This document shows, in pieces, positions 873 through 41,166 of a DNA stretch of 42,019 nucleotides; position 1 is the stretch's first letter; every line of letters starts with the position of its first letter. The stretch is taken from contig JALAGF010001259.1 in NCBI GenBank assembly GCA_030167865.1, positions 1 through 42,019 on the forward strand, read 5' to 3'. The DNA comes from Craspedostauros australis. Its lineage: Eukaryota. A program made the position numbers and the translations under genes. A model generated the notes under the pieces. It saw only the letters and a list, made by a program, of their open reading frames with translations, made no database searches and was not told the origin of the DNA.

Positions 873-1150
873 GTCGCCGCCTCCGACGGCATCAGTTGCC
901 CCATTCTCTCCAACCATAATACTTCACGACGTTATCCACAGAGCGGAGGCAAGCAAGGCAAAGCACATCGGCAACTCCCAACCCAACCACCACTGGCAGC
1001 AACAGTGGCAGTCACAACGACAGCAACACCAGTAGAATCGCGACGATTGCGGAAGCACCGTGGCTGCACTACCCACTCCATTTGACTTCGGCTCCGCCCC
1101 GACCCCGCTTGATCCACCGAAGTAGAATAGAATACCATCCTCTGCACAAG

Positions 1151-6000: not shown

Positions 6001-6763
6001 CATGACGTACGAGTCAGTGGAGGAACGCGTCGTGGAGTACGAGCCAGAGTACCTATGGTGCGTAAACGTACCACAACGAACGCAAACAACCCAAAACACA
6101 CGATCGCATTCACGCTCACATTCAACGAGCAACGAAAGAGGAAAGGAATAACTTCGCCTTTCCCACACGAAGAGCCACAAAGTCGATTGACCAAGAATGC
6201 AAACAGCTCGACACTTGCCGCTGTATCATCGACACCGCAACCATCACCGTCACCTCCGCGCTTAAAGCATCGATCACCGGCAACCGCCACCGACAGTCTC
6301 GAACGACGATCTTCACCGACACTCCGCACTTTCCGCGTTCATCATCGTCGTTGTCACTGTCGACGTCTTTGTTCCCATAGATCGTAATCGACGGCCCAAA
6401 CCACATCACGCTGCACTTCTCTCGTGATCTTCATCCGCAGTGACAAACCGACACAATCCCAGTCGCAATCACAATCACAACCCTCCACCCAGCGTCCATC
6501 CATCCCAAACAGATCCACCCATCCATCTACCCACCCATCTATCCGTTGCTCAAGTCCACCTTGCTGATCCCATTCCCTCACGAAGTCGACTGAGAACGCG
6601 AGTGTGAACACAAGTACAAACACATCCACAAACCCAAACCCAGACACATAAGATTACACATACAAAGTGCAACTGCGGTCGCAAGTGCAAGCGCCATCCC
6701 ATTCGCCACATCTTGCGATCATTCGCCACATATCATACTATTCTACTATAATAGCCATCACAA

Positions 6764-6800
6764 CCCATTCCAACCTCCCATTCCAACCTCCCATTCCAAC
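6764..6800. repeat. 13-bp tandem repeat just upstream of the paralogue B start codon
   Basis: CCCATTCCAACCT x2 plus CCCATTCCAAC, ending 6 nt before ATG 6807. Confidence 0.9.
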
Positions 6801-6806
6801 ATCACC

Positions 6807-18322: not shown

Positions 18323-18432
18323 GGTTGACGTGCTGCGATGTGTTGGACTGTGTTGGACTGTGCTGGAATGAGTGGAGTTGTTTGCCGTCGCTCTGATGAG
18401 ATGGCGAGTGATGGATCGATGGCTTGATAGGC

Positions 18433-18470
18433 TGATGGGTTGATCAAGTGATGGGTTGATCAAGTGATGG
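18433..18470. repeat. 16-bp tandem repeat upstream of paralogue C
   Basis: TGATGGGTTGATCAAG x2 plus TGATGG; each unit contains the palindrome TTGATCAA. Confidence 0.9.
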
Positions 18471-19423
18471 ATTGGTGAGCGCGAAGTCGTTCCTTGGTGA
18501 TTGTTCGTCGATTTTATGCGGTCTTGATGCGATGTCTGATTTCTGGAGGTGAATGGCAACTGTCCCCTACAGTCTCGTGTTGGCTTGGCTTGGCTTGGCT
18601 CGAATTGGCTCGAGTTGAATTGAATTGGCGGTCGATGGTTGATGGCTTTTCTGATCTTGAGTTGTGAATGTTCCGGGCGTTCTGGGTGTTGCTTGTGCGG
18701 GAGTGCTTGGCTTCTACCTTTCTCTGCGAGGCATGGAAGCATGCGCGCGGCTCTTGTGTCATGGTTCCATTCATCCCGGAGTACTCCGCAGTACCCTGCC
18801 TTGACCCCACTGCCCCTTCTTCGCGCCACCTGTGATCTCATGGTGGTGCGCAAGGCTCGCTCATCCACCATACCCAGTACACTCTCTACAAGTGCACGCT
18901 TCAGGCACGCGGAGAAGAACAGTCGCGTCGCTGGTATTGGCTCGAAACGAGGACGAAAGGAATAACTTATCTACGAATGTCGCGGCAGTCCGCCTACTAA
19001 GTCGAAGAGTATGCAGCGTTAAATCAAACAGCTACGTCATCGTGGCTTCCATCTCGTCACCTCAAAGCAAAGTCAGGAAAGCTCCCACAAAACCAGAACC
19101 ACGATCAATCAATGCGATCATTCCGAAATGCAGAGGAGCAGTTCCACAAACTCGACAAGTACCTGTAAGCTTCACAGGCTTAAATAATGAGTATTACAGG
19201 TCGGTATGCGCATGGTAGTTCGAAGAGTAGCGCTGTGCTGTGCATGCGCTGCGATTAGTACTTGATACACGCAAAAGCTCGTACCTGGAGAGAGAGTTCG
19301 AACTTGAGGTACTACCTTACCCAATGTCAGCGTCGCATGGTTCGGGTTATGGTGTCTTTGCGCCAACACCAAATCCCACCAACGCCACCAAGGTAAGAAG
19401 GCGAAGTGCCTCCAAACACAGCC

Positions 19424-21004
19424 CTACCGCAACTCGACACCAAGTTTGCCCACAGAGGCTTCTCTCACCTTCTCCTGGAGTCCGTCGATCTCTTCGTTCG
19501 TCAGTGAGCGTTCCATACTCCTGTACATGATGCGATAGCAATGAGATTCACGACCATTCTTGGGGTGCACAAATTGGTCGATGAGTTCCACGGACTCCAC
19601 CAAATCTCCTGCCACGCCTCGCACGAGTTCGAACAGATCGTTCTGATGGAAACTATTGCTGCGAGCGTCATTCTGATCGTCGTCTGTGTTTCCAGTCGCA
19701 CCAACGTCACTGGCTTCGTTCGTCGTCATTTGTTCCACATCGCCGTTCGGTCCATCCGCATCCGCGCGAACTTGTGGTTCAGCGTCGCCACTTCCATGCG
19801 AATTCAACCAGAAGGATATATCCTTGAAGCATGGTGGGTACTTGGAGTACACCTGGAACTTGGGCCATACGTCGATGGGCTGATCCGGTCTGACATTCTT
19901 GAACTGGTTCCAGAATCTCTCATCCGTGGACCAGAAGTACCGAATGTCTGGGATTTGGAAGAGCACCATGGCCAGCCGTTCCAAGCCGAAGCCGAAGGCC
20001 CAGGCCTTGTACTTCGTGCTGTCAAAGCCGCCAGCTTCGAGGACCTTTGGCTCCATGACGCCACATCCCAGAACTTCCATCCACTCACCCTCGAACATCA
20101 CCTCGAGCTCAAGCGATGGGTCCGTGAATGGGAAGAAGTCGTCGTTCCATCGCATGGGAACATCATTCCCGAACAGGACCCTCGCCACACCCTCGAGCGT
20201 GGTCTTGAGGTCCTGCAGCACTTCCTGTTCTGACTCTCCGTCGCCGAAGACTTTGACGCCCTCCATCTGATGGAAGACAGGATAATGTGAAGCGTCGATT
20301 TCATCCCGGCGGTAGACATCCCCGGCGACGAGGAACCGCAGTTTGGCATTCGTGTCGATAGTGCCGTCTGCGGCCATTGCCTCCTCACGGATCTGGTTCA
20401 TAATCTGCACCTGATGCGCGCTGGTGTGGCAGCGCAGGCAGTAGTCAGGGTGCTGGAGGTAGTAGGTGTCGGACATGCTGCGGCTGACGTGATCGGAGGG
20501 GATGAGGAGCGAATCGAAGTTCTGGTACGCCGTGACGACGGTGTTCATCTGGTCGAATTGGCGGTACTCCTCCTTGCCCAGGTGCTGGCGGATCTTCTCC
20601 TTGATGAGATAGAGGGGGTGGGGTATGGGATCCGAATGCAGATGAAGATTCGTGCCGACCTTGGCGGCGATGTGCGGCGGGACGTTGCACACGTGCTTGG
20701 GCACATTGCCCAGGTCGAAGTCAGCGAGTGTCTTCTCACAGGCTCGCATGTCTGGCAATGTCGATTCGGCAGTTGCTGCTGCCATTATTGTTCTCGTTGA
20801 TGATAGCGCTGACAGCGCTTTGGTCGGGGCATGGTACTTGCGGTGCTGCATGGACTGCGGCGCAAATGGCGCAACTGCACACAAAGGCAGCGAGTTCATC
20901 TGTGGCGCTGTGCTCTTCAACGAAGAGGCGCCTGGTCTAAGGGCATTGGCACGAAAGCCCATGCTGCGTGCCGCCCGTGCCAACTGCCGATGCCAATTCA
21001 GCAT
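19424..21004 (-). CDS. FARS2: Phenylalanyl-tRNA synthetase, monomeric organellar (mitochondrial) type
   Basis: Motifs NFDSLLIPSDHVSRSMSDTYY, LRCHTSAHQ, GDVYRRDEIDASHYPVFHQMEG, FFPFTDPSLELEV, WAFGFGLERLAM. C-terminal FDX-ACB domain (DISFW...SHCYRIMYRSMERSLTNEEI). Arg-rich presequence. Confidence 0.95.
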   Translation of the reverse strand: MLNWHRQLARAARSMGFRANALRPGASSLKSTAPQMNSLPLCAVAPFAPQSMQHRKYHAPTKALSALSSTRTIMAAATAESTLPDMRACEKTLADFDLGNVPKHVCNVPPHIAAKVGTNLHLHSDPIPHPLYLIKEKIRQHLGKEEYRQFDQMNTVVTAYQNFDSLLIPSDHVSRSMSDTYYLQHPDYCLRCHTSAHQVQIMNQIREEAMAADGTIDTNAKLRFLVAGDVYRRDEIDASHYPVFHQMEGVKVFGDGESEQEVLQDLKTTLEGVARVLFGNDVPMRWNDDFFPFTDPSLELEVMFEGEWMEVLGCGVMEPKVLEAGGFDSTKYKAWAFGFGLERLAMVLFQIPDIRYFWSTDERFWNQFKNVRPDQPIDVWPKFQVYSKYPPCFKDISFWLNSHGSGDAEPQVRADADGPNGDVEQMTTNEASDVGATGNTDDDQNDARSNSFHQNDLFELVRGVAGDLVESVELIDQFVHPKNGRESHCYRIMYRSMERSLTNEEIDGLQEKVREASVGKLGVELR

Positions 21005-22050
21005 TGTTGCTTGTGGCTGTTGCTCTTAACCAGATTCCGCAGCGTATCTTTGTCTGCTTGCAAAGACGCCGACTTCACTCTGCTCGAATAACAATGACAG
21101 CGACAGGTCCGATTTCTCGACTGTGATGGGTCGCCAGTGTGATCGTATGGTACGATGTAATGTGCGCGAGTCAATGGACGTCTCGGACGTCTTCCTTGTA
21201 CCATGCATTTAGCAGCAGTACAAGCGGTGTTTGGGTTGGTCTTGCGGTCACGGTCTCCATCTCTGTCGCCATGGTCAACATCATCGCGCATACGATTGTG
21301 GTCGTTCGTGTTGCGTCAACCCAAATCCATCACGCCAATCTTTCTCTCCTTCTGCTTTGGCGGGAAACGATTCCGTGTTTCGACAAAGATCATGAAGCAC
21401 AACCGCCTAATACCGTCATTTGACTCAGAGGAATAGACTGGATCTAAAGAAAGTACTTACATAAATTCTTGTCCCTCCATCAGTTCCACGTGAAGCTGAA
21501 GCTGAAGCCAAAGAACAGAGAGAACACATGGCCATCAGGCCGTGTTCGCACGTCTGTTGTGGCTCCCGCAGCTTCGCGATCACGTCAAGATCATCATCCA
21601 CTTCAACTTGGGAACGACACCACACAACTCTGCGCAATGTAACAGGACACAACACACCTACAAACAAGGGGGAAAGGAAGAGGCAACAGCCAACCACAAA
21701 CAGCACAAGCGTGAGCGTTGGATACTGTGACGGTTCATCATCGGAAGAAGCCATCGGCACCGATCCGGCAATCACAACAAAACCAAGAGGAGCAAAAGGA
21801 ACGAAGCGGAAAGCAACGTCGATCTCACTTTGCACAGTGTAACTGCTCCACTCTGTTGCATCCAAAGTATTGCATCCGAAGCAGTGATAGATACTCGCGG
21901 AGACCCCAAGATCCTTGCATCCGACGGAAGAAGCAGGCAACAGAAGAACAGAATTGTAAACAATCGGAACAGAACAGATCATTTCCCGGACCAGAGTGCA
22001 CATCGACTCCTCACGCTGAAGAATCGAAGGACGCAGTCTCCAATATCACG

Positions 22051-23812
22051 ATGTTCACAATGTCCACAATGTCCACAAACATGCGCAGAAGCAGATCCAC
22101 AGGACGATCATCATTGTCGCCATCGTCGTCGCTTTTGGTGCTGTCGCTGACGGTGTTCACCATTCTGAGCCAGAATGCGTGCTGCGATGCCTTCACCATG
22201 CCAGCACCTCGTGTCTCATCGCAGGCATCCACCACATTGAACCTCATTCCGGAATCCGCAAACGCCATCGCGGATCACGCACACATGCTGCAGAACATGC
22301 CGGCCATGGCTTGGCTCAGCGACGCAGCAGCGGCAACCGCCGATGCGGCCGTCGTCGAGGATGGCGGCTGGTGGCAATCCTACCTCAGCGTCTTCAAGAT
22401 GGCCCTTGAGGGTGTGCACGGTGCCATCGATCCTGCCCTGCGCAGTATCGGAGTCACCCAAACGTGGGGTATTGCCATCGCCATCTTTACAGCAGGTGAG
22501 TTCATTCGAGCATGTGTACTCTCTTCCAGGTACTCCTCCATGTATCGCATTCCATTGGATTGCATTGGATTGGATCGGATCATGTTGTTTTTGCCGACTA
22601 TATCTGACCACTCTATTCGTTGCGCACTGTCTCACCCATCATCGCAATTCCAATCAACAAATCAACCAACAAACAAATGAATGAATGAATGAATGACACA
22701 ACATGAAACCACACGACACGACATCAAATCATGTGATATGATATGATATCAAATGACACGCCAACATCCATCCTCATTTTTTCACGCTATCGTTGTTTCA
22801 ATATCACTATTTGTGTTCCTATTCCGCAGTCGTCCGTACCTTCCTGTTGCCACTCTCCGTCCAGCAGTCCAAGTCGGCGGAGTACATGAAGGCGCTCAAA
22901 CCGTACGTCACAGAGATCTCCGAAAAGTTCAAGGACAATGACGATCAGAAAAACCGTGCCCTCGGCAAGCTCTACGAGGATGCCAACCAGAACCCGCTGT
23001 CGGGATGCCTCTTCTCCTTGGCGCAGCTCCCCATCCTGCTCGGATTGTACCGTGGAATCCGCAACCTGGCCATCGACGGAGAGCTCAACGAGCCATTCCT
23101 CTGGATCCCATCCTTGGAGGGTCCCGTCCACGGCCCGGACTACCGCGATCTCGACTGGCTGCTCAGCGGCTGGACCTCTGTTGATGGCGCCCTGCCAATC
23201 CCGTCGCTGGGCTGGGAAACCACACTGGCGTTCCTCGTCATGCCAGTCCTTCTCGTCCTCGGACAATCCTTCACCATGTCCACCCTCACGCCGGAGCCAG
23301 ACAAGGAAACCATGTCGGCGGAGGAATTGGACCAGTTCGAAAAGTCGCAGCGCATCCTCAAGTTCCTTCCCTTGCTCATTGGATTCTTCTCTCTGCAGGT
23401 CCCCGCCGGACTCACGATATACTGGTTCACCACCAACCTCTACACTCTCGGACAATCCCTCAGCGTCAAGGCGTACTACAACGCAAACCCGCCGGAGATC
23501 GAACTCCCAGACTACTGGGACGCCCTCGATGACTTGGAGGCCATGACGCCGGAAGAGCAGCGCGAGGCCGCCAAGGCCGGTCTCGCCAAGGGACCCAACT
23601 GGGAGGACCTCAAGGTCGAGGCCCGATTCCATCCCGTCGTCGAACGCTCCGCCATGCGGGAATCTAGCGCATCCTGGCAACGGGTTGCCGACATTGACCC
23701 GTCGCAACGTGAAATCGCGGCCGAGCTGCAGGAATGGGTCACGGGAAAGCCAGCCGCCAATGGAGCCACGGAGGAGCCCTCCGTCGAGGCGACCGCGGCC
23801 ACCAGCGCATGA
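22051..23812 (+). CDS. ALB3: Plastid membrane protein insertase of the ALB3/YidC/Oxa1 family (2 exons)
   Basis: Exons 22051-22495 and 22830-23812; GT-AG intron 22496-22829 (phase 1) joins WGIAIAIFTA-V-VRTFLLPL. Motifs NPLSGCL..LAQLPILLGLY, FLWIPSLEGP, VPAGLTIYW. Bipartite presequence with CCDA|FTMP cleavage site. Confidence 0.92.
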
Positions 23813-26074: not shown

Positions 26075-27403
26075 TGCGCGTCTCTGCGAGCGCCACTTTT
26101 GCTGTTCCTGTTGCTTGTGATCTTGCTGCTCCCGTCGATGATATTGCCATTCGAGCTACCCGCTTGTGTTTGTGACGATAGCACTGAAAACGTCCGATGC
26201 AGAAGTACCAAAGGGATTATGATGATGATGATGATGAGTGCGCTCGTCCGCATGCTGTGCTGGATGCGATGCTCCGAGCGGAGAAGGAGACCACCCTCGA
26301 ATGCCCACATCAGACATGCTGGTGCCTTTCCGCCCGCATCCAAAGTGACCAAGAGATCCAGATGAGATGAGTGCTCTGCGCGTTGGGGATTACTACTCGT
26401 AAGAGGAGTATCCGTGTGTCCCACGCGACCAAGAAGCGTCATGTATCGCGCAGGGTGCTCCCTCTCTGAAAGATTCGAACCTTGCGTGACTTGCGACGTT
26501 GAAACATGATCTTCGCGGATGTCCCATTCGTATTGACTGCCGCATGATTCGATCGTTGATCACACAGGCAGATCGCCGCCATGGCCACCGCCGTAGTTGT
26601 CGGTGCAGCGGGAGATCGAGAAGAAGATGCTTAGCGCAACGGAATCTTCGTTCCCGCCTGTCTCATCCGCCCTGGTCGCTGCACGAAACATCGAAAGTGG
26701 CTCGTTCCATAATCGCACAAGTTCCATCAAGGATGAAGCTCCCTGCGTGGCGTCTTGGCAGCCCCACGCTTGCTCATGGTATCCTTCCTTCATCTCTCTG
26801 GATTCTGGACGCATTATGTCCATCCCAGCTTCGATCTTTGTTGCGGTTGTCGCCCCCGTCTTTGTCGTTGTTCCCGCCAAGGACAACACTATTGAAACGT
26901 CAATTTGCAAGTCATATTTACAGTCTGGTTGTCCTCCCCAAATCCGTCAACATCCGTATGAATCATGGGAGTCAACCACAATTATCCACGATTGAACAGT
27001 ACCATAGCATAGTGTGTCCCAGATAGGTATAGTCCGATCACATCGATCTGTGCACGTTTCAAAATAGTCATGGGAGTCAAAGAGATGGAAGAGTCTCTAT
27101 TGGAAACGCTCTCTATTTATCATACATTGAGTCTGTTGCAACCCGTATAGCGTGTCCTCAGATGACGCGGAAAAGTGAAGATACGATTCTCGACATTTCA
27201 ACATGTCAGATCCATTTCCCCTCCGCAACGATTCGCTTTCGTGACACAGAACAAACATGTGACCATGCAACGTTGTTTGCGATGGGCCCGTCTTGCCTCC
27301 CTTGCTCCCTCCTGCTCACATTACAACAATCCTGAGGGGTTGAGCGTACAGTCTCTGTCATTATTCCATCACAACTACGTCTCGCCAGAGTAGATAAATC
27401 ACA

Positions 27404-28837
27404 ATGAAGATCGCACCGCTCGCTACACTCTTGATAGGCGCACCATCCTGCGCCGCGTGGATCAATGCATCTCCATCGAACGGTTCAACCCGAGCAGCAG
27501 GGGCGCTGCGTCCATCAGGTTTTTCATTGCATGCCATCGGCAGCGCTGGATTCGGAAGTTCCGATGCCAGCGACGTGGATGCGGCCGTGGCGGAGTCCAT
27601 CGCCATCGCCAAGCAGGAGGTGGGAGACGACGTGGCCATGGCGTTCGTGTCCTGCACGGCAGACGCCGACGTGCCGCTCGTGCAACAGGAATTTCAGCGA
27701 CAGCTGCAATGCAGCAACATCCACGGCATCACGTCGTCGGGCGGCGTGCTGACGAAGCAATCTGGATCGATACCGAATGCCGTTGGTTGTCTGCTGATGT
27801 CGGCGGATGCGGGCGATTTCGTCACGTCTTACCATGCGTCGGATGCGGCGGCGGCCGTGCGCGAATTGGAGGCATCGGGGAAGGCGTTTCGTGCCCCCGG
27901 TGACGGTGCCGATGCTATAACGGCCCCACCGTTGTTCCAGGCCATCTTCATGAGCGCTACTCCAGGCATGGAAGAGGAAGTGATTGATGCCATCGAGGAG
28001 GCATTCCCGAACACGCCTATCTACGGCGGAACTGCCGCGGACAATGATCTGAGCGGCAAGTGGATGGTGTTTGGAAGTGACGTGAAGGCCGATGATTCCG
28101 GCGATGTCACACCAGCCTCCGGGACAGGAATCAGCCTGGTGGGTATTGGAGCGGACGTGAAGATGGGAGCAAGCATGATCGGTCCGTACCAACCAACGCA
28201 GCGCAAGGTGACGGCCACCAAGACCGACGGACGGCGAGTCTACGAGCTGGATGGACAACCGGCAGCGGATTGGGTGTACAACGAATGGCTGGGTGACGAA
28301 GTGAAGGAGGCGTACGAGAATGGCGGCCTGATCCTCGGCCAGACGGCCCAACGCCCCATCGCGTTCGAGGTGTCATCGGGAGGTGCGAGCGGCCCCCGCA
28401 AGCTGCTACAAGGGCGCAAGAAGTCCGCGCAGCCAGACGCAGATCCGGAGTACATCACGGCGCATTTGGCGGCGCTGGGTGGCCCCGATGAGAAGTTCGT
28501 GGAATTCTTCACGCCCATCCCCGAAGGCAGCGAATTGACGGTGATGGACAGCGGCGATGGTCCATCGACGGGATACGCGGCTGCGCTTGAGACGGCGTAC
28601 GATGCAGCCTCCGCAGGCGTGAGCGTCCCGAAGGCAGGACTGCTGGTGTACTGCGGAGGCATGGCCATCGCCGTGGGTGATCAGCTGAACGATGGATTGC
28701 TCAGCCCATCCTATCAGCAACGCTTGGGCAACATGCCCATGATGGGAATGACTTGCTTCGGAGAACAAACCTGCACACCCCAATCCAACACCAACGTGCA
28801 GCGCAATCTCAGCGTCGGCATGGTCTTATTTGAATAG
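27404..28837 (+). CDS. FIST-domain (FIST_N + FIST_C) protein with N-terminal targeting peptide
   Basis: 477-aa intronless ORF. Motifs HGITSSGG, PIYGGTAADN, VTATKTDGRRVYELDGQPAAD, LLVYCGG, GMTCFGEQ, NLSVGMVLF follow the FIST pattern. Signal peptide MKIAPLATLLIGAPSCAA|W. Confidence 0.85.
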   Translation: MKIAPLATLLIGAPSCAAWINASPSNGSTRAAGALRPSGFSLHAIGSAGFGSSDASDVDAAVAESIAIAKQEVGDDVAMAFVSCTADADVPLVQQEFQRQLQCSNIHGITSSGGVLTKQSGSIPNAVGCLLMSADAGDFVTSYHASDAAAAVRELEASGKAFRAPGDGADAITAPPLFQAIFMSATPGMEEEVIDAIEEAFPNTPIYGGTAADNDLSGKWMVFGSDVKADDSGDVTPASGTGISLVGIGADVKMGASMIGPYQPTQRKVTATKTDGRRVYELDGQPAADWVYNEWLGDEVKEAYENGGLILGQTAQRPIAFEVSSGGASGPRKLLQGRKKSAQPDADPEYITAHLAALGGPDEKFVEFFTPIPEGSELTVMDSGDGPSTGYAAALETAYDAASAGVSVPKAGLLVYCGGMAIAVGDQLNDGLLSPSYQQRLGNMPMMGMTCFGEQTCTPQSNTNVQRNLSVGMVLFE

Positions 28838-29614: not shown

Positions 29615-31391
29615 ATGTCGAAGTCCCCTTCGTTGCGACGAATCCAGGCGGATATCCGCGAACTGTCGTTGGATCCTTCCGATCGCTACTATGCTGCCCC
29701 CATGGAGAATGACATGTTCGAATGGTAAGTGCGCCAATCCTTGCCTACCTGCCTACCTGGATGCGTGTACGCATGCATTTGCGCGCATCCCATGATCGAC
29801 ACCGCAAGAGGAGTTGCGGACCACGAGATCGTGGACTCCAGGATTTGTTGCTGCTCTTTTCTTTTCGCTCACCTTCTTACTTTACTACTCGACACCCATC
29901 TCACTCACTGTGTTCCATCGCATTTCACTTCATTACATTACATCGCACTGTTCCAAATGCATCATCTTCCAAACGACAAACACTGCTCTTGGTCTCCACA
30001 ACACTTCTCGCCCAAGGCATTTTACCATCCGAGGAGCCGACGACACCGACTTTGCTGGAGGCATCTACCATGGCCGCATTCTCGTAAGTGCCACGTGGGA
30101 ACTTCCATTTCATTCCACGACGATGCTCTTTCATTCCTCGCACGTTGCCCGTTTCTGCTCAAGAGTATCCTGCCGATCACACCTTGAAATATGCGTCACT
30201 TCACTCTGACTCCGTCGCTCCATCTTCTCCAATCTCCATTTCCAACGTATCCGCACACCCTTTCCCTCATTCAATTCCATCCCATTCATGACGCAGTTAC
30301 CACCGGAGTACCCATTCAAACCACCGCACATCATCTTCCTCACGCCATCCGGGCGGTTCGAAACGCACACGAAGGTGTGCCTGTCATTCTCGGCGTACCA
30401 TCCAGAACTGTGGCAACCAGCATGGGGCATCCGTCTCATCCTCGAGGCCCTCATCAGCTTCCTCCCAACGCCTGCAGACGGCGCCATCGGGGCGTTGGAC
30501 TGGACCACCAAGGAACGCCAGCACCTGGCCAAGAAGTCCGTCAACTTCTGCTGCCCGACCTGCGGCCCCATCAAAAACATCATCCCTAAACTCAAAACCA
30601 ACGGCAACGGCAACAAGTCATCTTCCAGATTCGCGAAGGAGATTCAGGAACTGCAACGCATGCAAGAGATGAATGAAAGCAAGAACGCCAACACCAACAA
30701 GGAGAGCACAAGTGACAGTGGCAGCGATGAAAAAGACCATGGCAGCGACAATGCCAAGCAGAAAGAAAACGAAGCGGCTGCAGATGCGCAAACGCAAACT
30801 AAGGCAGAGGCAGGAGCACATGTACAGCCGGGAGACGACACGAAGGCAGAGCCGCAAGCAGAGAGCAACGGTGTCGATGCAACAGAGGAAGCCGCCAAAT
30901 CAGCATCGGCTCCATCGACTGCGATGGATCCTCAGGCGTCATCGGAGTCAGCTGCGTCACAGTCGTCGTCATCGAGGTCGAGTTTGGCGACCTCGCATCC
31001 GTCACCCAGCGCGCCTGTGGAAACCCAACCTCCGGCCAACGTCACACCCGCAACTGTGACAACTGCGGTGCAAATGCAGTCACTGCGGAATGGAACAGCA
31101 CCGTTGGCAACCGACAGACAACCAGAGGGAGAGACAGCAACCGCACCTGCAGACGGCGTTGCTGGCGGTGGCCCGGATGCCGATATCGATGTTGACACCG
31201 CAGCGCTTGATCAGTCCATCACGGACGGGCCCAACGTCCAGGGTCCCCATGACCCACAATGGATGATGGAGCCTCTCCTGCATCTCATGATCGGTCTGCT
31301 GGCTGTCATCTGCTACATGCTCTTCCAAAAGTGGAACGCTCTGTACGCCGAGCTGCTTCACTTGCGTGCATTGAACCAACAAGCGTTGTGA
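29615..31391 (+). CDS. UBE2J1: Ubiquitin-conjugating enzyme E2, UBE2J1/Ubc6 type, with C-terminal membrane anchor (3 exons)
   Basis: Exons 29615-29724, 30017-30083 and 30297-31391; GT-AG introns 29725-30016 and 30084-30296. Spliced product reads MSKSPSLRRIQADIREL...FEWHFTIRG...YHGRILLPPEYPFKPP...TPSGRFE..TKVCLSFSAYHPELWQPAW, with a TM segment near the C-terminus. Confidence 0.93.
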
Positions 31392-31660: not shown

Positions 31661-31686
31661 AGAGAGAGAGAGAGAGAGAGAGAGAG
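31661..31686. repeat. (AG)13 microsatellite
   Basis: Uninterrupted AG run between the convergent UBE2J1 and xpt-fusion 3' ends. Confidence 0.95.
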
Positions 31687-31789: not shown

Positions 31790-34700
31790 CTACAACGAGC
31801 TATGCTTACTCGCGTGCCTTCCACTGTTCCCGTTGTTGCTGCTGTCTTCGTAAGCCTTCTTGCTTTCATCGGCCTCCTGCTTCAGGGACTTTTCCTTCTT
31901 ATTGGACTTCATCTTCTGTTCCTGCGCGTACCCCTCCTCCTCCACCAGCTCGATGACGCCGTTTGCCACGGAAGCAACGCGGCAAAGAGATTCGACGGGG
32001 ACGTTGAATCCGGCCAGCGTCGTGCGTCCGTTGTCGTATACCTTCTCCAGCAGCACCCCCACACCGACGCACGTGGCGCCCGAATCCGAGATGATCCGCA
32101 GCAGCGCCTCCTGTGATGACCCGCCGCTCAAGAAGTCGTCGATGACCAGGATGCGATCATCCTCGTCCAGATGGCTCTTGCTCACCAACAGCTCGCGGCT
32201 CTTGCCCAACGTTTTGGAGGAAAATGCCGCGCTGTAGGTGTCGGCCATCACAAGAGAGCGTTCCTTGCGTGCGTACACCACGGGGACCTGCAGGTACTTG
32301 GCCATCGGCAACGCGATCACCAATCCTGTGGTGGCGACTGTCAGGATCTTTGTGGGGCGCAAGTTCATGAATCGCTCGGCCTGCAGTTAATTGTAGCACC
32401 GTCCACGATGGAGAAAGGGTCGAGAGTACGGAATGAGGCAGTTGCCAAATGGGGTTGGGATTGGGTCGAACCACAACAGAGCACAACCAGAATGAGAATA
32501 GAAACCATATTGAACATGGGGTTAGAATCAAGATCGCAATCATATCATATCATGCCATCTCGACTCATCTCAACACAAAGAAGTATACCCCCGATCGTCG
32601 TTTAGCGAGCAATGCGTGCATACACGCGGAGCAGCATAGTTCAATTGCTTTCAACACTTACCAACTCGTTGGCACAATCATCCATGAGGTTGACATCAAT
32701 TTGCGTCTCCATGAAACTGGACACGTCGATGATGTCCTTTGGCAGCACTTTGCCGTCCTTCAGCACGCGATCCCGCAGGAACATGCTGGCTGTGCCTCCG
32801 CTGCTCTTGCCAAGCTCGCTGTCGGACCCAACTTGCAGGAACTTTTGGTACTCCAAATCGAATGTCAGCTGCAAGGTCTTGAGCATCTCGTTGATGGCTT
32901 CGCTGACGCTGACGAGCGTGCGCATGCAGTTGCAAAAGTACATGTCGACGTCGACGATGCCGTAGTCGAAGATCTCCATCTCCCCGTCGTAGAAGCAGAG
33001 GCATGTCTTGAATCGTGTCACGCGGGTTGGCTCGGAGAACGGGCTGAGGGCATCGACCAGGTACTCCACATTCATGCCAATGTCGTTGATCTTGTAGCCG
33101 GAACGTATGCGCGGGCTGTTCGCGGCCATGTCCTGGATTTGGCGGTTCTTGAGGTTGGAGGAACTCTTGCTGGTGGATAGAGACGACAGCGACGATGGCG
33201 ATGAAATTGGTATGAGACCCGGGGGGTGCGTCTTGGGCAGATTGGCGTTCTCGATCATGTCCTGCGTCGGCATGGGCTCCACCTCGAACGACGTGCGTGA
33301 AGAGATGCACGGTAACCCTGTGACATTGTAGACGGATCGCGCCTTGAAGGATGCCATGTCCTCGATGGAGACCAGCCCATCCTCGACGCAGGCATCTTCC
33401 CAGTCACCAAAGTTCTCCGCAAACTCGATGCCGTAATTACCAAAGGTGCCCTGAAAGCTCTTGAAGCAGACATTATCCACGGCGCTGACCCACATGGTGT
33501 CGTATCCCTGCAGTTCATCTGGTTCACGTTCGAAATAGACCTTGGCCTTTTCGCTGTTGCGCGCCTTTTCCAGTCGGACAGATCTGGTTTGAATGGCCAT
33601 CATTCGTTCCTGGAATTGCTGCTCTTCCAGCTCCTCCTGACGCTTAGCCTCTTCGTCGTTCTCGTCGTCATCGAAGCTGTCATGCTTTGCAAATGCATTC
33701 TCTGCGTATCAGGTGGCAGTACGGTACATAAACATAATCATAGATGTATAGGTGCGAAACAATGGTCATGAGAGAGCATTTGATGCAAGAAAGTGGAGCG
33801 ACCTCCAAAGTACTGGCGACACATGATAATATGACACACGTACAAAACAGGTGTCCAGTACAAATCGACGAAGGCATCGCTACAAACGCCTTCAATTCGT
33901 TCGAAACAGGCAGGTACCGCACCCCTGCATCGCAAGTGGTGTTTGACACCGCTTTGTATGCTCGCAACTCATCCACTGAAGCACACCCGCCACAAAGCAA
34001 TCGAGTGAAATGAAAACTGACCTTCTTGATCATCGGCCGAACCGCTGCCATCATCCCATCGATCCCACGGTTCGATCTCGTCGTCGATCACGTGAGGCAA
34101 GCGGAAGGTTCGGCTGGCATCAATGCCTTCGCCATCACCACGCTCCTCTATCTCCCTTTCCCACTCCTCCAGCTGCTGTTCCAAAAGTTCGTTCTGTTTT
34201 TCGATGTCCCATTCCTCGTCATCGTCGTCCTCCGTCTGCCGACGTTCCACTTCCTGCAGGTACCGCAAGATATCAAGGTCCAGCCAATTCTCAGCGACGC
34301 GGTAGGGTTCGTACTGCGACAGCGTGGCTTCCGCGGACTTGTACTGTTCCATGGTGGGCATTGGGCGTTCCAGCATGTACTTCGGTGGATCCGTGGACCT
34401 GGAGCCGCTCTGACTGCCGACGTTGATGTTCGGATTGGTGGACATCACGGGCCCCGAGGACATGGCGGCAACTCCCGCCGCAGCCGTGCCGGGCGTGATG
34501 CGATTGGACGACGCCGTGCCGCCGCTGTTGGCGATGGATTGCATCTTCTGACGCTGCGAGTTGTCGGCGGAGACCGTCGTCGACTTGAGCTCCACGAAGC
34601 TCTTTGAGGAGGAAGAAGCGGACGCCAGAAAGTCGCTGTTGGGGTTATTCGCGTTCATGAAAGTGCTGGGATCGACACCCTCCCCGTATCCCTGCTGCAT

Positions 34701-35000
34701 CCGTTGCTGCCGTTCCATCTCCTGGAAGAAGACATCATCGGGAGATGCATCGGGCGAGACGGGGTCGTACCATTGATTAATGTCGCTGTCATCGGAAGAC
34801 TTCTTTCGGTTGCGCTTGGCAAACAACGTCGTGCTTGTTCTGCTTGCTCTGCTCGTTGTTGCTGCAGCACCTGCCTTGGGCATTGGTTCTGGCGGTGGCA
34901 CCCATGATTGTACTGTCGTCGTTGCTGATGCAGCCACGAGAGCGACCAGCAGCCTTCCAAACGGAGGTTTGGGTAGAACTGACACAGTCCGATCAATCAT
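31790..35000 (-). CDS. xpt: ~869-aa protein: targeting peptide, acidic region, degenerate Ham1/ITPase-like domain and C-terminal xanthine phosphoribosyltransferase domain (3 exons)
   Basis: Exons 35000-34022, 33701-32662 and 32380-31790; GT-AG introns 34021-33702 (phase 1) and 32661-32381 (phase 0); total 2610 nt, in frame. Xpt motifs RVLKDGKVL..DIIDVSSFMETQID, TKILTVATTG, YARK, FSSKT, DRILVIDDFLSGG, GVGVLLEK. Confidence 0.85.
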
Positions 35001-35392
35001 GCTTCTTGAGCTGTGCGAGTGCGTGTGATGAAGTGGCATGGCAAGTGACGGAGCCAGTATATGAACCTATCGGGCGACGGGGCTTGTTCCTCCCGCTCTA
35101 CGAGCCACCTCCAGTCCAACCAAGGTGCTTCAACAATGTTGCTTTTGGTGCGCCCGAATGCAAATCCAAGCAACATGGTGATGTGCTTGGATCGCATCAC
35201 GACACCAAGCAACCTTCCCATCAGCCGAGGAACACACATCAAGCGGCAATCACCAAAAACTCCACGATTCCGTCTCTTCCGTTCTCGGGAATGATTTGGA
35301 TACTTGTCACAGATTTTTGTTTGGCGTTGATGAGTGAGTCGTATTAGTCCGACAGTCTCTCACCACATTCACCTGTTCGACATCCGTATCCG

Positions 35393-35841: not shown

Positions 35842-37695
35842 ATGTCGGAAAAGAAGGAAGAAACGGAGTTGTCGTTCCGCGAGGTGATGCAGAAAGCATC
35901 CAAATCGGCCATCCGCGGAGGAACGGCCGGTGCCGTCGCCATGGGTGCCAACGTCGCCTGTCTCATGTGGATGCGAACAACCGTGAGTACTCTGGACATG
36001 CCGATGCTCATGCATTGGCTCACGTACCCAAGGTTGCTGCTGCTGCTATTGCGCAACGCACGGCCCCGATCAAAATGAAGAGCGTGGAATCATGCCTTCG
36101 ATGCAGACGTATCGGATCCTGTTGAATTTGGAATTTGGAACGACGTGGAGCACAAACCATCATGTCAAAGGTCGAAAGATGTAATTCTCCCAACGCAAAG
36201 GGGAATGCGCGAGGGACCACTTGTCAAACCCCTTTGATGTTCCATGATTGCAATGGTGATTGGAATTGGCAGACAGCTCAAGCAATTCGGAGCCTGGGCA
36301 AGGTCGAAAGCACATGGAACAAAAAGGAACATTATTGATGGTCTTGCAGACACGTGCTCGTCCCCCCGCCATGCTCATGCCAAAAGACAGTCTTGAACTT
36401 TCCCTCAAGTCTTCCATCGAATTCCCGCTCACCACCTCGTCCATTCCTTCATGTACTCTTTGCCATGCCACCCATCACCATGTCCAATCCAATGACGACG
36501 AAAACGGCGACGACGTCAACCTCATCAATCAATACGTCAATCAATACGTCAATCAATACGTCAATCAATATGCCAATCAATATGCCAATCAATATGCCAA
36601 TGCATCAATCTGCAGGTCAACTACCAATACCGCAACGGAACCACCTTCCCAGTGGCCCTCCGCACGCTTTACGCAGATGGTGGTATCCCGCGTTTCTACC
36701 GTGGCGTCTTGCCAGCCCTTTTCCAAGGACCATTGTCGCGATTTGGTGACACTGCGGCCAACACGGGTGTCCTCACTCTGCTCAATTCTCTCGAAAGCAC
36801 CAAGGATCTTGCGGTTGGTGTCAAGACCATTGCGGCCTCCGCATCTGCCGCCATCTTTCGTATCTTCCTGATGCCAATCGATACCGTCAAGACGACCGTG
36901 AGTTGACAATCCATTGATCGGTGCCAATTTCGCCTTGCAATTACATCTACGTGTGCAATGCGGCGCAGTGCGACATGTGATGTATATGTTCACGTGAGAG
37001 AGAGTGCTGCCGGTGCACTCTCTCGTTGCAGTGCCATGTTGAAATCAATGAAAGCGATCAGGTGCAGCATGGGCTTCGTGACAATATTCAGTGCATGGGA
37101 CGTTGGTTTGATTGGCTCTGATTGAGCTGAATGCCTGTTGTGCCGTATCCATTCTTCTTCAATTCTGCTTGCAAATGAGTCTCACCCTCGTCACCATTGT
37201 TCATCATTCATCCCTCGCCGCCACTAAATCCATGACTGCTCCTCACAGATGCAAGTCACAGGAAAATTCAGCGTCGTCGTGGACAAGGTCAAGGCAACCG
37301 GACCTCTCGCCTTGTACAACGGAAGTCTCGCTGCCGCATCCGCCACCTTCGTCGGACATTACCCATGGTTCTTCACCTACAACTACCTCAGCGAACGCAT
37401 CCCCAAGCAGGACACGCAGCTCGGCGAGCTCGGCCGTCGTGCCATCCTCGGTTTCTGCTCCTCGGCCGTCTCCGACACCTGCTCCAACAGCATCCGCATC
37501 TGCAAGGTCTACAAGCAATCCTATCCCGAACAGATATCTTACCCTCAGGTCGTGCGCAACGTCATCGCCGAGAGCGGCGTGAAGGGTCTCCTGTTCCGCG
37601 GATTGGAGACCAAGATCCTTTCCAACGGTCTGCAGGGAATTCTCTTCTCCGTGTTGTGGAAGCACTTTGAGGAGGTTCTGTTTCCAAAGAAGTAA
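35842..37695 (+). CDS. Mitochondrial carrier family (SLC25) protein (3 exons)
   Basis: Exons 35842-35982, 36616-36897 and 37249-37695; phase-0 GT-AG introns 35983-36615 and 36898-37248. Signature PIDTVKTTMQ, DGGIPRFYRG, ESGVKGLLFRG; repeats 1 and 3 have degenerate signatures (WMRTTVNYQ, SIRICKVYKQ). Confidence 0.9.
36527..36598. repeat. 12-bp minisatellite, 6 units, in intron 1 of the carrier gene
   Basis: (AATCAATACGTC)x3 followed by (AATCAATATGCC)x3, ending 17 nt before the exon 2 boundary. Confidence 0.95.
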
Positions 37696-38344: not shown

Positions 38345-40060
38345 TCAACGCAACCGCACCCTCTTCCGCTGAGGCGCGGCCGGCAATTCCGGGACATTGC
38401 TCTCGGCATCCTCGATCCACCGACTGCGCCGATCCAAAAAGGTCTTCATCTCGGCGCCATTTTGCGGCAATTCTTCCGCGGGCGTATCGGCGTAGTAGTC
38501 GGATGGAATCTCCTCCTTGTAATGCGCAAATAGTTCTCGCGTCAAGGACAGAGCGTACTGCGGAATCTTGCGATTGCGACGGAATTCTCGGATGGGAATA
38601 TCGGCGAGCACGTATCCTTCGTCGCTGTCGGAATCGAGCTCCTCCAGGACCGCGCCGTCGGGACCTACGATCATGGAATGGCCACCGTACTTGGGGAGCT
38701 TCGGGTAGGGAATATTGGACATGGCGGAGTACATCTGATTGGTCATGGCCGTGCAGATGACGTCCTCGCGGGAGAAGAGGGTGGATGTGCGCAGCATGAT
38801 CTCGGCGCCCTTCATGGCGAAGGCAGCGTAGACGAGGGGATCCATCTGGACGGTGGAGACGGCGAGGTTGCCGTATTCCGTTTGTATGACTGGGAATTCT
38901 GCATCCATGCCGTATAGTTCCTGGAACCTGGAGCGCACCGATTCGACGGTCGTGGTGGTGATCTCGAAGGTCTCGAAGAAGCGCTTGATGTTCTTCGCCT
39001 TCCAGATGGTCTGGTGGATGCGACCCTGTCGGTTGATGACGGTCTGCAAGCTGAGGACGTGGCCTGACCAATCGTCTTCGTCCTTGGCGTAGGCACCGAA
39101 GATGATGTAGACGTCGTGCTTCTTGGCGAGATCCAGCAACGGCTTAACGTAGGGCGAGTCTTCGGTGATCTGGATGGACCAATCGAGCTGCCGCTGGCGG
39201 TTCCACTGTGGACCAACGAGCCCACCAGTGAGGGGGAATTCGTGGAAGAGCAGGATGTCCGGTTTGCCGTCACTGTCGGATGACGAGCATGCCTTCTCTG
39301 CCCAGGAGAGCATGCTTTGCAGGTTCTTCTGCATTGCGGCCTCCCGTCGCTCCTCCTCGTTCAACCCACCCTTCGTTGCCGCATCGTCGGAGTAGAAGGT
39401 GGAGAGGTCCTGACAATCCGTTTGCATCGCGGCGATCTTGACATTGTCCTTCTCCAGCGGCTTGCATGGGTAAGATCCATCTGCTCTCACCGGGCGTTCC
39501 CTGTAGAACTTGGTGCGATCTCTGGCCCCGCTGGCCAGGACACGATGCTCCGGCATGCTGCTGCTGATGGAGGGTAAGAACTGCTGCTCGCGGCCCATCG
39601 TTGACGCTCCGATGCTGATTAAACCATCACGAGCGTTAGTGTCATCGCCAAAGTCAACATTGATGTTGCTGCAGCCATCAACCGAGGATGCGTGCCTCGA
39701 TGTTGCTGCGAAAAGTGGTTTGTGGAGAATGCCTGATCTTCTGCTCGTGCATGACCGAGTTCCGTCTTCAGTTGCTGGTGAGGAGAGCCTTCGGATGGTT
39801 GGATGCGTTTCCGAGGAAACCTGTGGCTGTCTTACCCGTCGTCCGCCTGCGTCCACGTTTGTGATGCTGTGGGTGAACAGTGCCGTTGTCGACAATGGCA
39901 CTGATGTTGATGTTGATGCTGACGTGGACGTTGAAATTGATGTGAATGATGGCGTTAATGATGGTGTGAATGATCGTGTTCGTGTTGTGAAGGTCGACGC
40001 CAGCGCTGAGACAGACACTGCTGCGGTTGCCATGAAGGCCATCGAGATGAAGGACTTCAT
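38345..40060 (-). CDS. Nitrilase-superfamily (carbon-nitrogen hydrolase fold) protein with signal peptide and Ser/Thr-rich N-terminal extension
   Basis: Likely ATG at 40060 (MKSFISMAFMATAAVSVSA). Fold motifs VKIAAMQ, PDILLFHEFPLTG, AKKHDVYIIFG, VINRQGRI...WK, PVIQTEYGNLAV, AMKGAEI, GGHSMIVGPDGAVL, EGYVLADI. Confidence 0.88.
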   Translation of the reverse strand: MKSFISMAFMATAAVSVSALASTFTTRTRSFTPSLTPSFTSISTSTSASTSTSVPLSTTALFTHSITNVDAGGRRVRQPQVSSETHPTIRRLSSPATEDGTRSCTSRRSGILHKPLFAATSRHASSVDGCSNINVDFGDDTNARDGLISIGASTMGREQQFLPSISSSMPEHRVLASGARDRTKFYRERPVRADGSYPCKPLEKDNVKIAAMQTDCQDLSTFYSDDAATKGGLNEEERREAAMQKNLQSMLSWAEKACSSSDSDGKPDILLFHEFPLTGGLVGPQWNRQRQLDWSIQITEDSPYVKPLLDLAKKHDVYIIFGAYAKDEDDWSGHVLSLQTVINRQGRIHQTIWKAKNIKRFFETFEITTTTVESVRSRFQELYGMDAEFPVIQTEYGNLAVSTVQMDPLVYAAFAMKGAEIMLRTSTLFSREDVICTAMTNQMYSAMSNIPYPKLPKYGGHSMIVGPDGAVLEELDSDSDEGYVLADIPIREFRRNRKIPQYALSLTRELFAHYKEEIPSDYYADTPAEELPQNGAEMKTFLDRRSRWIEDAESNVPELPAAPQRKRVRLR

Positions 40061-41166
40061 TGTTGCTGCTGTTGTTGCTGCTTTGGATGGTGGTGGATTC
40101 GACTTATGAGCCTTTGGAGTCTTCCCGTGCCGATCGTCGGTCTTTGGTTGTTGGTTGTCGATGGCTCTGCTAGTCGCACGATTTATGTGTCTGCCTGAGC
40201 TGTATTGATCGCGGACTTTGTGAGCTGACTGTGCGATTTGCGCATTCAAGAGACACAAGCAAAGGCAGAGCAATGGTGCGATTCTGATCCTGTTCGCGGA
40301 TGTGTGATGAAGAATGTGGTTTGATCGCTCGCTTCCTTGCTGACTTGCTAGCACCGTCTGATGGTCTGATGAGCATCCAGGCGAAAAACGGAGCTGAGGG
40401 TTCTTTTGTTTGCCGGCGAAAGAAGACTCTGCTCGCGCGCTTTGCCGATGCTCTCAAAGAGTGTCGTGATTGCGCGAGTGGGATGATGGATGCTGATGCC
40501 AACAATGCCAGTCCTACCAGCCCCCCAATCAAGATGTTTGCCTTCTGCAAACATGCGCCGCAACTGTCATTCGGACTCAGCGATGACACTTGCCCGGCTT
40601 CACACTTCTTTGTCGTTCCTGCAACACTGCGGCACCCTGCTCCATTTGTTCTCATTTCTTCGCGTTCGTCATCGCCCCGCTCTGATACTTCCTGGGCGCA
40701 ACAATCCGGAGCTTTTTGCCTTGTTCGTGTTTGGTCAACCCCTCTGATCACACGTGGGTATGTTCGTTTACTTGAATTCTGATTCTGTTGTTAGCGGACG
40801 ACTATGTTGGGTAAATTTAGTAACTGGCAACGACAGGTGTCAGTCTTCTGTTCACGGACAAAATGTCACGCTCCAATATTGTTCGAGATTTGGAACGATC
40901 GATTGCCACGCAAGCAGCAACCACACGCAAGGAACACGCAAGACAACAGCAACAACAATTTCACCACGGGAACCGCGGTAAATACGTTTTCGGCGTCGTT
41001 TTCCGATGGGACTCCATTGGTAGTCCAAGTAGTCATTGTGTAACATGTTCACAATCTAGAAGGTACTCCCATAGACAGTTCATCGACGTAGTGTGAACAT
41101 GGTATTACGGTTGGTCACTAGTTATGTTATGTTGGTTGTTCGTGCTGCATGGGACTCGCTCCACTC

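Follow-up and report, generated by a model that had tools for sequence, protein, structure and literature searches.

The window analyzed here, a 42,019-nucleotide stretch of the diatom Craspedostauros australis (contig JALAGF010001259.1 of assembly GCA_030167865.1), has on its minus strand three open reading frames (ORFs; 33969..35066, 365 amino acids [aa]; 32641..33708, 355 aa; and 31790..32386, 198 aa). A preliminary description, made from the letters alone, had read these as the exons of one probably plastid-targeted protein, in which a degenerate domain of the Ham1/RdgB type (inosine/xanthosine triphosphate [ITP/XTP] pyrophosphatase) is fused to xanthine phosphoribosyltransferase (XPRT). 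The locus raises the question of whether such a fusion exists and, if so, what a pyrophosphatase domain stripped of its catalytic motifs is doing on a purine salvage enzyme. We find that the locus is one nuclear gene with three exons, that it belongs to a raphid pennate diatom, and that its product has 869 aa. Its middle domain, judged by its relatives and by profile comparisons, is a divergent homolog of Ham1/RdgB.

The spliced join begins with the ATG at 35000 (a second ATG, in frame, lies at 35039) and is 2610 nt long, i.e., 869 codons plus the stop (coordinates of all parts are given in Table 1). Both introns run from GT to AG, have lengths of 2 modulo 3, and, if read through, would lead to a stop 17 codons into intron 1 (after residue 343) or 6 codons into intron 2. 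The G+C content is 55 to 58% in the exons versus 46 to 47% in the introns and reaches 0.55, 0.41, and 0.73 at codon positions 1, 2, and 3 of the join. Below, residues of the middle domain are numbered within exon 2 (add 327 to obtain the protein position) and compared with Escherichia coli RdgB, while the numbers used for the XPRT domain are those of the Bacillus enzyme. Junction 2 is exact: exon-2 residues 308 to 345 correspond to XPRT profile positions 4 to 41 and exon-3 residues 1 to 148 to positions 43 to 191. Junction 1 is supported because exon 1 is collinear with the N terminus of the Pseudo-nitzschia ortholog P0089 (BLASTP E = 4e-23), which continues past the exon-1-like part into the same middle and XPRT domains. 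Of seven ORFs in alternative frames of the locus, six antisense to the gene and one on its own strand, none matched a Pfam family. With GT..AG introns, no internal stop, and an XPRT domain restored at junction 2, the single spliced protein of the preliminary description stands; the peptides that it had singled out all lie in exon 2, the stretch 33369-33274 corresponding exactly to residues S111 to P142.

To identify the middle domain, we compared the 305 residues that precede the XPRT part with 1.84 billion representative proteins by means of phmmer. This recovered 88 proteins at E ≤ 1e-3, 62 of them at E ≤ 1e-10, and extended to distant relatives such as P0147 (1.5e-29), P0162 (2.4e-16), P0166 (1.0e-15), and P0187 (1.5e-8). 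The assignment to Ham1 comes from matches of these relatives and of family profiles rather than from the window domain alone. When 28 distant relatives were scanned, 9 passed the cut-off of the Pfam Ham1p_like family (PF01725; 22.5 bits) with 23.7 to 42.0 bits and 2 more fell just under it; the phosphoribosyltransferase family PF00156 was found in 20, and both domains scored above the cut-off in 5. The Ham1 matches of the relatives all fall inside profile positions 14 to 140 of 186. At the level of structures, the Tribonema fragment P0166 alone matched RdgB (Protein Data Bank [PDB] code 2pyu) at E = 2.6e-5, the Vitrella protein P0147 matched 1b78 at E = 7.8e-4, and a profile of 23 family members matched, among PDB sequences, five of the Ham1 fold (E = 3.1e-8 to 3e-4) in addition to XPRT (E = 6e-49).

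Direct profile comparison, which the preliminary description had put forward as a check, points the same way. With E. coli RdgB translated from NC_000913.3 as the hhalign target, the whole family (39 domain-trimmed rows) gave a probability of 97.1% (E = 5.3e-11) and the 27 nondiatom rows gave 97.5% (E = 7.4e-12); against a 61-row RdgB profile, a shallow one built from proteins 85 to 100% identical to E. coli RdgB, the whole family reached 97.7% (E = 1.4e-12). Eight other E. coli proteins used as controls remained at ≤0.6% (E ≥ 0.09) with either query. NCBIfam models for RdgB/XTP diphosphatase matched 10 of 11 nondiatom relatives (E = 1.7e-8 to 4e-3) and neither of two diatom proteins, with all scores far under the equivalog cut-offs. 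Sub-threshold Ham1 matches were present in 8 of 61 diatom members (best E = 0.0072); across the 61, no family except the two transferase families recurred in more than two members.

All of these alignments share one register, in which K119 pairs with RdgB K53, GLP with ALP, and R..F.C with R..F.C. The domain is thus homologous to RdgB/ITPA/Ham1 (PF01725; PDB codes 1k7k, 2pyu, and 2q16) over RdgB residues ~12 to 126, the secure part of the alignment. Within it, K53 persists in the window as K119, along with the GLP turn, the R..F.C strand, and a DG turn; the last third is shortened and cannot be aligned securely. Unlike RdgB, the family domain has a conserved lead-in of 30 residues (IQTRSVRLEKARNSEKAKVYFEREPDELQG in the window) and a variable loop, and it was always found joined to a phosphoribosyltransferase domain or the remnant of one. 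In a structural comparison, the low-confidence ESM Atlas model of the Seminavis ortholog P0034 superposes over the whole domain on a 218-aa Ham1 cluster with a template modeling (TM) score of 0.63 by query and 0.68 by row (186 residues), and three Ham1 clusters are among its structural neighbors (TM 0.62 to 0.63 by query). The Atlas feature neighbors shown for the middle domains of two orthologs are Ham1 clusters only, with scores (0.79 and 0.84) that serve as leads only. The tetrapeptide PPGL, previously equated with the PG motif of Ham1, proved to be a chance match, as it falls within a Ser-rich insertion peculiar to the window, where 12 orthologs have gaps or unrelated short sequence.

The same register reveals the state of the former active site. 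The first acid of the RdgB catalytic pair, D68, is S134 in the window, and the second, D69, is R135. The first position is acidic in none of 119 diatom proteins, whereas 58 of the 84 nondiatom proteins have Asp or Glu there; near-duplicate cluster members enter into all nondiatom counts, which hence do not represent independent sequences. The second position holds Asp in 0 and Glu in 1 of 203 family proteins. Neither position is acidic in any of the 119 diatom proteins, in 104 of which the dipeptide at the acid pair is SR. Alignments, the column table, and this dipeptide census all agree with the earlier reading of the ADDSG motif as SSRTS. As for the triphosphate site, which according to PMC3899018 consists of K13, K53, and R87, the window retains one of the three residues: K13 is replaced by C78 (red algal members have Lys or Arg), K53 is kept as K119 (and in 39 of 40 members), and R87 becomes G201 if Y202 pairs with Y88, an alternative register pairing R197 with R87. 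Nondiatom ochrophytes have Arg at the R87 position, in an ARY motif resembling the SARY of RdgB. The metal-binding Glu (E. coli E41, human Glu44) aligns with E106 or D107, depending on a one-residue gap, and D107 is conserved in at least 90% of the diatom sequences. The TxNxxK, FGYDP, and SHR motifs (the last two with human base-binding F149 and R178) are unrecognizable, as had been noted before; the local alignments stop by RdgB residue 126 and the Pfam matches of the relatives by position 140 of 186.

The acid pair D68-D69 of E. coli presumably corresponds to human E71-D72, with Asp72 as the equivalent of D69. In the alignments, PDB entry 2pyu has Ala where 1k7k has the second Asp, and the 2pyu variant was reportedly used for trapping substrate. 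For human ITPA, PMC9016069 describes Glu44 and Asp72 as crucial. In Maf enzymes, which have the same fold, replacement of the general-base Asp is stated to abolish activity (PMC3899018), and we infer that this Asp is the counterpart of RdgB D69. Judged from these columns, the full catalytic set is kept in no lineage and diatoms keep the least of it, from which we infer that the Ham1-like domain no longer hydrolyzes ITP or XTP. RdgB shares its ITPase-like fold and a Lys/Arg phosphate site with Maf pyrophosphatases (PMC3899018), but the window lacks the S-R-E-K-D-K signature of Maf, including its catalytic Asp, and none of the Pfam, NCBIfam, and PDB searches made here brought up a Maf family.

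Despite these losses the Ham1-like domain is under constraint and almost as conserved as the XPRT domain. Mean pairwise identity among 120 diatom orthologs is 70% in its N part and 65% in its C part, compared with 76% in the XPRT domain, 39% in the N-terminal region, 35% in the linker, and 18% in the variable loop. In the former catalytic loop, A133, R135, T136, S137, F138, E139, E141, and P142 show little or no variation across 121 diatom sequences, and the same holds for the charged residues D75, D99, D107, E113, D114, K119, R121, E139, E141, R226, D238, E242, D250, and D252; D99 is invariant in 40 of 40 family members. The lead-in contains an invariant S40, with R42, L43, A46, A52, F56, R58, and P60 each at 90% or more in the same 121 sequences, and S40 and L43 are near-invariant in the wider family too. 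We also noted the cysteines of the diatom domain (C78, C131, C233, and C235), of which C233 is invariant and C78 and C235 are present in at least 90% of the 121 sequences. C233-x-C235 forms a CxC motif, replaced by Val or Ala in many nondiatom relatives, and the conserved cysteines could constitute a redox or metal site.

The C-terminal part is the domain that the preliminary description had recognized as a Bacillus-type XPRT. NCBIfam models TIGR01744 and NF006671 jointly cover profile positions 4 to 191, the B. subtilis structure 1y0b is matched at E = 1.1e-25, and PF00156 at E = 2e-11, so that B. subtilis Xpt (1y0b and 2fxv) is the best structural relative, with full-length profile coverage. 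The intron-split pieces score 21.1 plus 137.6 bits (cut-off 164.45) and 24.5 plus 135.5 bits (cut-off 177), their summing being approximate; intact diatom orthologs score 153 to 167 bits, just under the equivalog cut-offs, and red-algal-type members pass with 178 to 192. The window keeps R80, K81, L85, S98, D124, D125, F126, and K156, including the bridging loop R80/K81/L85 (YARKERSL) and the D124-D125 pair of the loop that binds phosphoribosyl pyrophosphate (PRPP), present as VIDDFL. Relative to Bacillus, it shows the changes E58 to Ala, S60 to Thr, A128 to Ser, and N129 to Gly. The Asn of the Bacillus FLNHQ motif, labeled N27 by counting along the printed chain, is Glu in the window (FMETQ) and Asp in most ochrophytes and is kept in red algae; we take it to be a residue of xanthine specificity, though our literature search found no paper on N27. 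Of nine pocket residues (E58, S60, K81, S98, D124, D125, F126, A128, and K156; list from bioRxiv 10.1101/2020.03.04.977603), all invariant in 62 bacterial XPRTs, the window keeps six, with E58A, S60T, and A128S altered. According to the same source, the retained Bacillus-type residues bind PRPP or (p)ppGpp (guanosine penta- and tetraphosphate) in Bacillus. These three changes are common to the ochrophyte members with an intact XPRT domain, in which the motifs read TVATTG at the E58 site and DDFLSxG at the A128 site, while red algae keep E58 and A128. The base preference of the ochrophyte members may have changed. Beyond the domain, most of 12 aligned orthologs stop within ~10 residues, and the nonconserved tail of the window gives a weak match to PcfK (E = 0.0096, under its cut-off). 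In three relatives the XPRT half is degenerate too, namely, P0145 (Parmales-like; no ARK bridging loop, VDEFLGTG), P0147 (Vitrella; QAHHK, VDTFL), and P0195 (Cyanidium; IGDFM), from which it appears that both halves of the fusion can decay.

The fusion is not peculiar to this genome. Exon 2 recovered 147 homologs of 607 to 2000 aa at E ≤ 1e-3. The 120 of these for which details were listed are 45 to 57% identical and cover 90 to 99% of the exon; PF00156 is a precomputed domain in 112 of them and PF01725 in none. The named rows are all diatoms (among them Seminavis, Fistulifera, Epithemia, Cyclotella, Cylindrotheca, Pseudo-nitzschia, Mayamaea, Thalassiosira, Skeletonema, and Odontella), and the proteins are called only "xanthine phosphoribosyltransferase," "phosphoribosyltransferase domain-containing protein," or "hypothetical protein"; several bear MMETSP/CAMPEP transcriptome labels (e.g., P0006, P0023, P0061, P0067, P0068, P0093, P0094, and P0097). 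A survey of the clusters of 30 relatives, of the kind proposed in the preliminary description, extended the family to other ochrophytes (Triparma and Parmales, Heterosigma, Tribonema, and Chrysoparadoxa), a chromerid (Vitrella), and eight genera of red algae (Rhodochaete, Pyropia, Rhodosorus, Compsopogon, Hildenbrandia, Cyanidium, Galdieria, and Agarophyton); these clusters contained no named member from outside the three groups. A search with the relative P0176 matched only itself and two Triparma proteins.

In a quick maximum-likelihood tree (34 rows and 518 columns, six fragmentary rows excluded; support by the Shimodaira-Hasegawa-like approximate likelihood ratio test only), the complex-plastid sequences form one clade (99) separate from the red algal rows, and diatoms group with bolidophytes (99), diatoms with each other (97), and the window among raphid pennates (95). 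The tree tracks organismal groups, which points to an old and largely vertically inherited fusion; the window gene is the diatom ortholog of an old fusion that red algae have in common with algae whose plastids are red derived. The relatives P0145 and P0154 group together next to Triparma, a position suggestive of a bolidophyte paralog. To look at bacterial XPRTs, we scanned one genome per bacterial or archaeal species with two peptide patterns, a sample biased by the patterns, in which the 80 best-matching loci comprised 79 from Chloroflexota of the Anaerolineae type and 1 from Moorella, with 36 to 49% identity to the XPRT domain; given this bias, the scan says little about the donor of the domain. 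The eight bacterial XPRT ORFs inspected are stand-alone (193 to 237 codons from stop to stop). Flanks within 6 kb of the 80 loci (838,107 bases) contained no match to RdgB (tblastn, E ≤ 1e-4) or to the family hidden Markov model (E ≤ 1e-3), so that this pattern-biased sample offers no operon precedent for the pairing of Ham1 and XPRT.

At the N terminus, the residues read as a signal peptide (MIDRTVSVLPKPPFGRLLVALVAASATTTVQS) have a hydrophobic core starting at residue 17 in a crude scan, followed by a putative cleavage site of the ASAFAP-like type (VQS|W at 32/33), of which Trp33 would be the +1 residue. Orthologs from complex-plastid lineages have A|W, A|F, or G|F sites at the corresponding place, and a crude script found a hydrophobic core in 70 of 85 orthologs with complete-looking N termini. 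At the level of pattern, then, the N terminus resembles the diatom plastid-targeting type, as the preliminary description had it; it fits plastid import, and the protein is probably plastid bound. Further downstream, "AKR.K" directly precedes a WY motif in the consensus of 121 diatom sequences, and other ochrophytes also have a D-W-Y/F motif behind a KR-rich stretch. The exon-1 motifs WYDPV..DVFFQEMERQ, AEATLSQYEPYRVAENWLD, and EPWDRWD are conserved in 12 diatom orthologs, and the acidic N-terminal region (residues 68 to 326) has the diatom-wide motifs WYD.VD..ASPDDVFWEEMERQRL, AEATL.EY.AF.V.DNWLD, and SDEPWD.WG. No Pfam family was matched by exon 1.

Taken together, we think it rather probable that the protein is an active plastid purine phosphoribosyltransferase bearing a non-catalytic, Ham1-derived module that acts as a dimer clamp and whose cleft possibly binds a ligand. 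The XPRT domain would make a purine nucleoside monophosphate (xanthosine monophosphate [XMP], perhaps guanosine monophosphate [GMP]) from the free base and PRPP in the plastid, and the Ham1-like domain, as a non-catalytic module on the transferase, would most likely hold two XPRT domains together. The clamp role is proposed because Ham1 enzymes are homodimeric (ITPase is described as a homodimer in PMC5075207) and because in Bacillus XPRT, which dimerizes weakly, a loop of the partner subunit completes the active site ("an unstable dimer," with bridging-loop Arg80 entering the neighbor's site, according to bioRxiv 10.1101/2020.03.04.977603). The conserved former cleft (K119, R121, R135, R197, R226, and D238) may bind a phosphorylated purine without metal and so tune the enzyme.

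A number of points weigh against this reading and have to be set beside its rivals. The window's own middle domain, and indeed exon 2 as a whole, match no Pfam family at E ≤ 1, and the only RdgB match of the window domain alone in the PDB (1k7k) has a nonsignificant E value of 1.4. Diatom-only alignments give moderate hhalign results (44 to 67%, E = 2.4e-4 to 5e-5, against RdgB alone; 85.4%, E = 5.8e-6, against the RdgB profile, which we also count as moderate). The model that superposes on Ham1, the only structural evidence, is that of a 55%-identical ortholog and has low whole-protein confidence (predicted local distance difference test, 0.48; predicted TM score, 0.33). RdgB residues 127 to 197, with FGYDP and SHR, never align locally, and a forced global alignment of them is of low confidence. 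If one adds that Atlas feature scores of 0.79 and 0.84 lie within the range often attained by shuffled proteins, the Ham1 likeness might be thought fortuitous and the middle domain one of another or a new fold. We consider this hardly credible in view of the chain of significant matches that leads from the window to its relatives and from these to Pfam Ham1 and RdgB structures, the gulf between 97% for RdgB and ≤0.6% for the eight controls, the single register of all alignments, and the three Ham1 clusters found as structural neighbors. It is just as hard to believe that the gene model is an artifact in which the XPRT part belongs to a different gene from the upstream ORFs or has been misjoined to them: intron 2 splits the XPRT domain itself and its splicing rebuilds the domain exactly, the 112 listed orthologs with PF00156 span nearly all of exon 2 and several of them are transcriptome ORFs, exon 1 is collinear with ortholog N termini, and a third-position G+C content of 73% over the whole join goes with the lack of internal stops. 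The remaining points against the favored reading concern function. Plastid targeting comes from a pattern reading and a crude script, and the dipeptide of a small and an aromatic residue is easily obtained by chance; the three pocket changes, together with scores just under the equivalog cut-offs, make the substrate of the transferase uncertain; with K13 and R87 also gone, canonical nucleoside triphosphate (NTP) binding is doubtful in diatoms, which weakens the sensor half of the proposal; and dimerization, ligand binding, and enzyme activity are all predictions.

On the function of the middle domain, a bifunctional enzyme might be envisaged, in which the Ham1-like domain still hydrolyzes ITP/XTP by an altered mechanism, or another phosphoanhydride, beside the salvage of xanthine to XMP, so that deaminated purine NTPs would be cleaned to XMP or inosine monophosphate by the same protein. 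Many charged residues are invariant or nearly so among diatoms, D99 and K119 hold across the family, and nondiatom relatives often retain an acid at the D68 position, with Lys or Arg at the K13 position in red algae and the SARY-like ARY in nondiatom ochrophytes; moreover, XMP and pyrophosphate are products of either reaction, and this would account for the original gene fusion. We nevertheless regard it as rather unlikely, as Asp never occurs at the position of D69, the presumed counterpart of a base whose replacement in Maf abolishes activity (PMC3899018), diatoms have lost both acids along with K13 (Cys) and R87 (Gly), and the part of the profile with FGYDP and SHR is unmatched in every relative. 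The converse, a relic that serves as a mere spacer while XPRT alone works, would accommodate the lost catalytic residues and the 54-residue low-complexity insertion inside the window domain, but it is very unlikely given a conservation close to that of XPRT and far above that of the N-terminal region, loop, and linker, a former catalytic loop that is among the best-conserved stretches, and retention of the domain throughout the sampled lineages, which span the range between Cyanidium-type red algae and diatoms. A bolder extension of the favored clamp is that a dead ITPase, kept since the red algal ancestor, would regulate plastid purine salvage by clamping the XPRT dimer and reading a phosphorylated purine (a deaminated NTP, XMP/GMP, or the plastid alarmone (p)ppGpp), the altered ochrophyte pocket (Asp/Glu instead of Asn at the N27 position, Ala for E58, and Ser for A128) perhaps having shifted the base preference from xanthine toward guanine, in connection with a purine nitrogen store; taken as a whole, it seems to us unlikely.

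A precedent from the same pathway for the retention of an enzyme fold as a ligand-sensing module is Bacillus PurR, the second-best PDB relative of the window XPRT domain (E = 7e-13), which has an inactive phosphoribosyltransferase-fold domain that senses PRPP and (p)ppGpp (PMC8789054). In PurR, however, it is the transferase fold that is dead, with DNA binding as the output, whereas the fusion has a dead domain of the Ham1 fold next to a transferase that looks active. The bacterial XPRTs examined, in contrast to the fusion, stand alone at ~190 aa. In Thalassiosira pseudonana, the protein annotated as XPRT is reported to rank in the top three for up-regulation when cells have spent 24 h in dark anoxia (log2 fold change of 1.22; bioRxiv 10.64898/2026.07.20.739533), which indicates that the enzyme is made and regulated; that study, the only diatom paper on the enzyme that our searches found, treats it as a plain XPRT and traces it to Ochrophyta, while the family range found here is wider, with red algae and a chromerid as well. 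A tabulation in PMC10107265 lists land plants without an XPRT ortholog, so the fusion, marking red algae and algae with red-derived plastids, would be a lineage-specific piece of plastid nucleotide metabolism. Both parent families are already known. The earlier statement that the architecture is undescribed holds insofar as our literature search found no description of the fusion or of the decay of Ham1 into a conserved pseudoenzyme, but it has to be qualified, since for at least one environmental relative the database already lists PF00156 and PF01725 together among the precomputed domains. Should the dead domain sense nucleotides or fix the dimer, it would clearly exemplify how a house-cleaning enzyme can become a regulator, and the pocket changes of ochrophytes mean that the database name "xanthine phosphoribosyltransferase" may misstate the substrate in diatoms.

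Table 1. Coordinates of the fusion gene, its predicted domains, and neighboring ORFs in the window
Feature	Positions	Strand	Remarks
Exon 1	34022..35000	-	326 codons plus base 1 of codon 327; donor GTCAGT; targeting presequence and acidic low-complexity N-terminal region with short conserved motifs
Putative signal peptide	34905..35000	-	Residues 1-32; pattern reading
Transit-peptide-like stretch (probable)	34800..34904	-	Residues 33-67; Ser/Thr/Ala/Arg/Lys-rich, KRNRKK at end
Acidic N-terminal region	34022-34799	-	Residues 68-326
Intron 1	33702..34021	-	320 nt; GTCAGT...CAG; phase 1; GC 0.47
Exon 2	32662..33701	-	Last 2 bases of the codon split by intron 1 plus 346 full codons; donor GTAAGT; lead-in, Ham1-like domain, linker, first 38 XPRT residues
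Conserved lead-in	33505..33594	-	Exon-2 residues 36-65; no counterpart in RdgB
Ham1/RdgB-like (ITPase-fold) domain, degenerate	32830..33504	-	Exon-2 residues 66-290 (protein 393-617)
Former catalytic loop	33274..33306	-	ISSRTSFEVEP; exon-2 residues 132-142; S134-R135 at RdgB D68-D69
Ser-rich insertion	33112..33273	-	Exon-2 residues 143-196; 54 residues, variable-length loop
Intron 2	32381..32661	-	281 nt; GTAAGT...CAG; phase 0; interrupts XPRT domain
XPRT domain (Bacillus Xpt-type, type I phosphoribosyltransferase)	31937..32778	-	Exon-2 residue 308 to exon-3 residue 148
Exon 3	31790..32380	-	196 codons plus TAG; remaining XPRT domain and tail
C-terminal Lys/Glu/Ser-rich tail	31793..31936	-	Exon-3 residues 149-196; not conserved
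RXYLT1/GT47-like glycosyltransferase ORF	13984-16182		Pfam
Class II phenylalanyl-tRNA synthetase core plus FDX-ACB domain ORF	19424-21025		Pfam
60KD_IMP (Oxa1/Alb3-type insertase) ORF	22757-23812		Pfam
FIST N plus C domain ORF	27398-28837		Pfam
Ubiquitin-conjugating enzyme ORF	30210-31391		Pfam; convergent neighbor, ends at 31391
Carbon-nitrogen hydrolase ORF	38345-40453		Pfam

The neighboring ORFs have no obvious tie to purine metabolism, and tRNA and Rfam scans of the window gave no match. DUF6824 occurs in three ORFs of the window (920-3004 and 6594-8390 on the plus strand and 16988-18970 on the minus strand; E ~ 1e-17 each), forming a small local family. An (AG)13 microsatellite (31661-31686) lies ~100 nt past the stop codon of the fusion gene, between it and the convergent gene for the ubiquitin-conjugating enzyme, and a 12/24-nt tandem repeat (TCAATCAATACG) is present in ~6 copies at 36525-36601.

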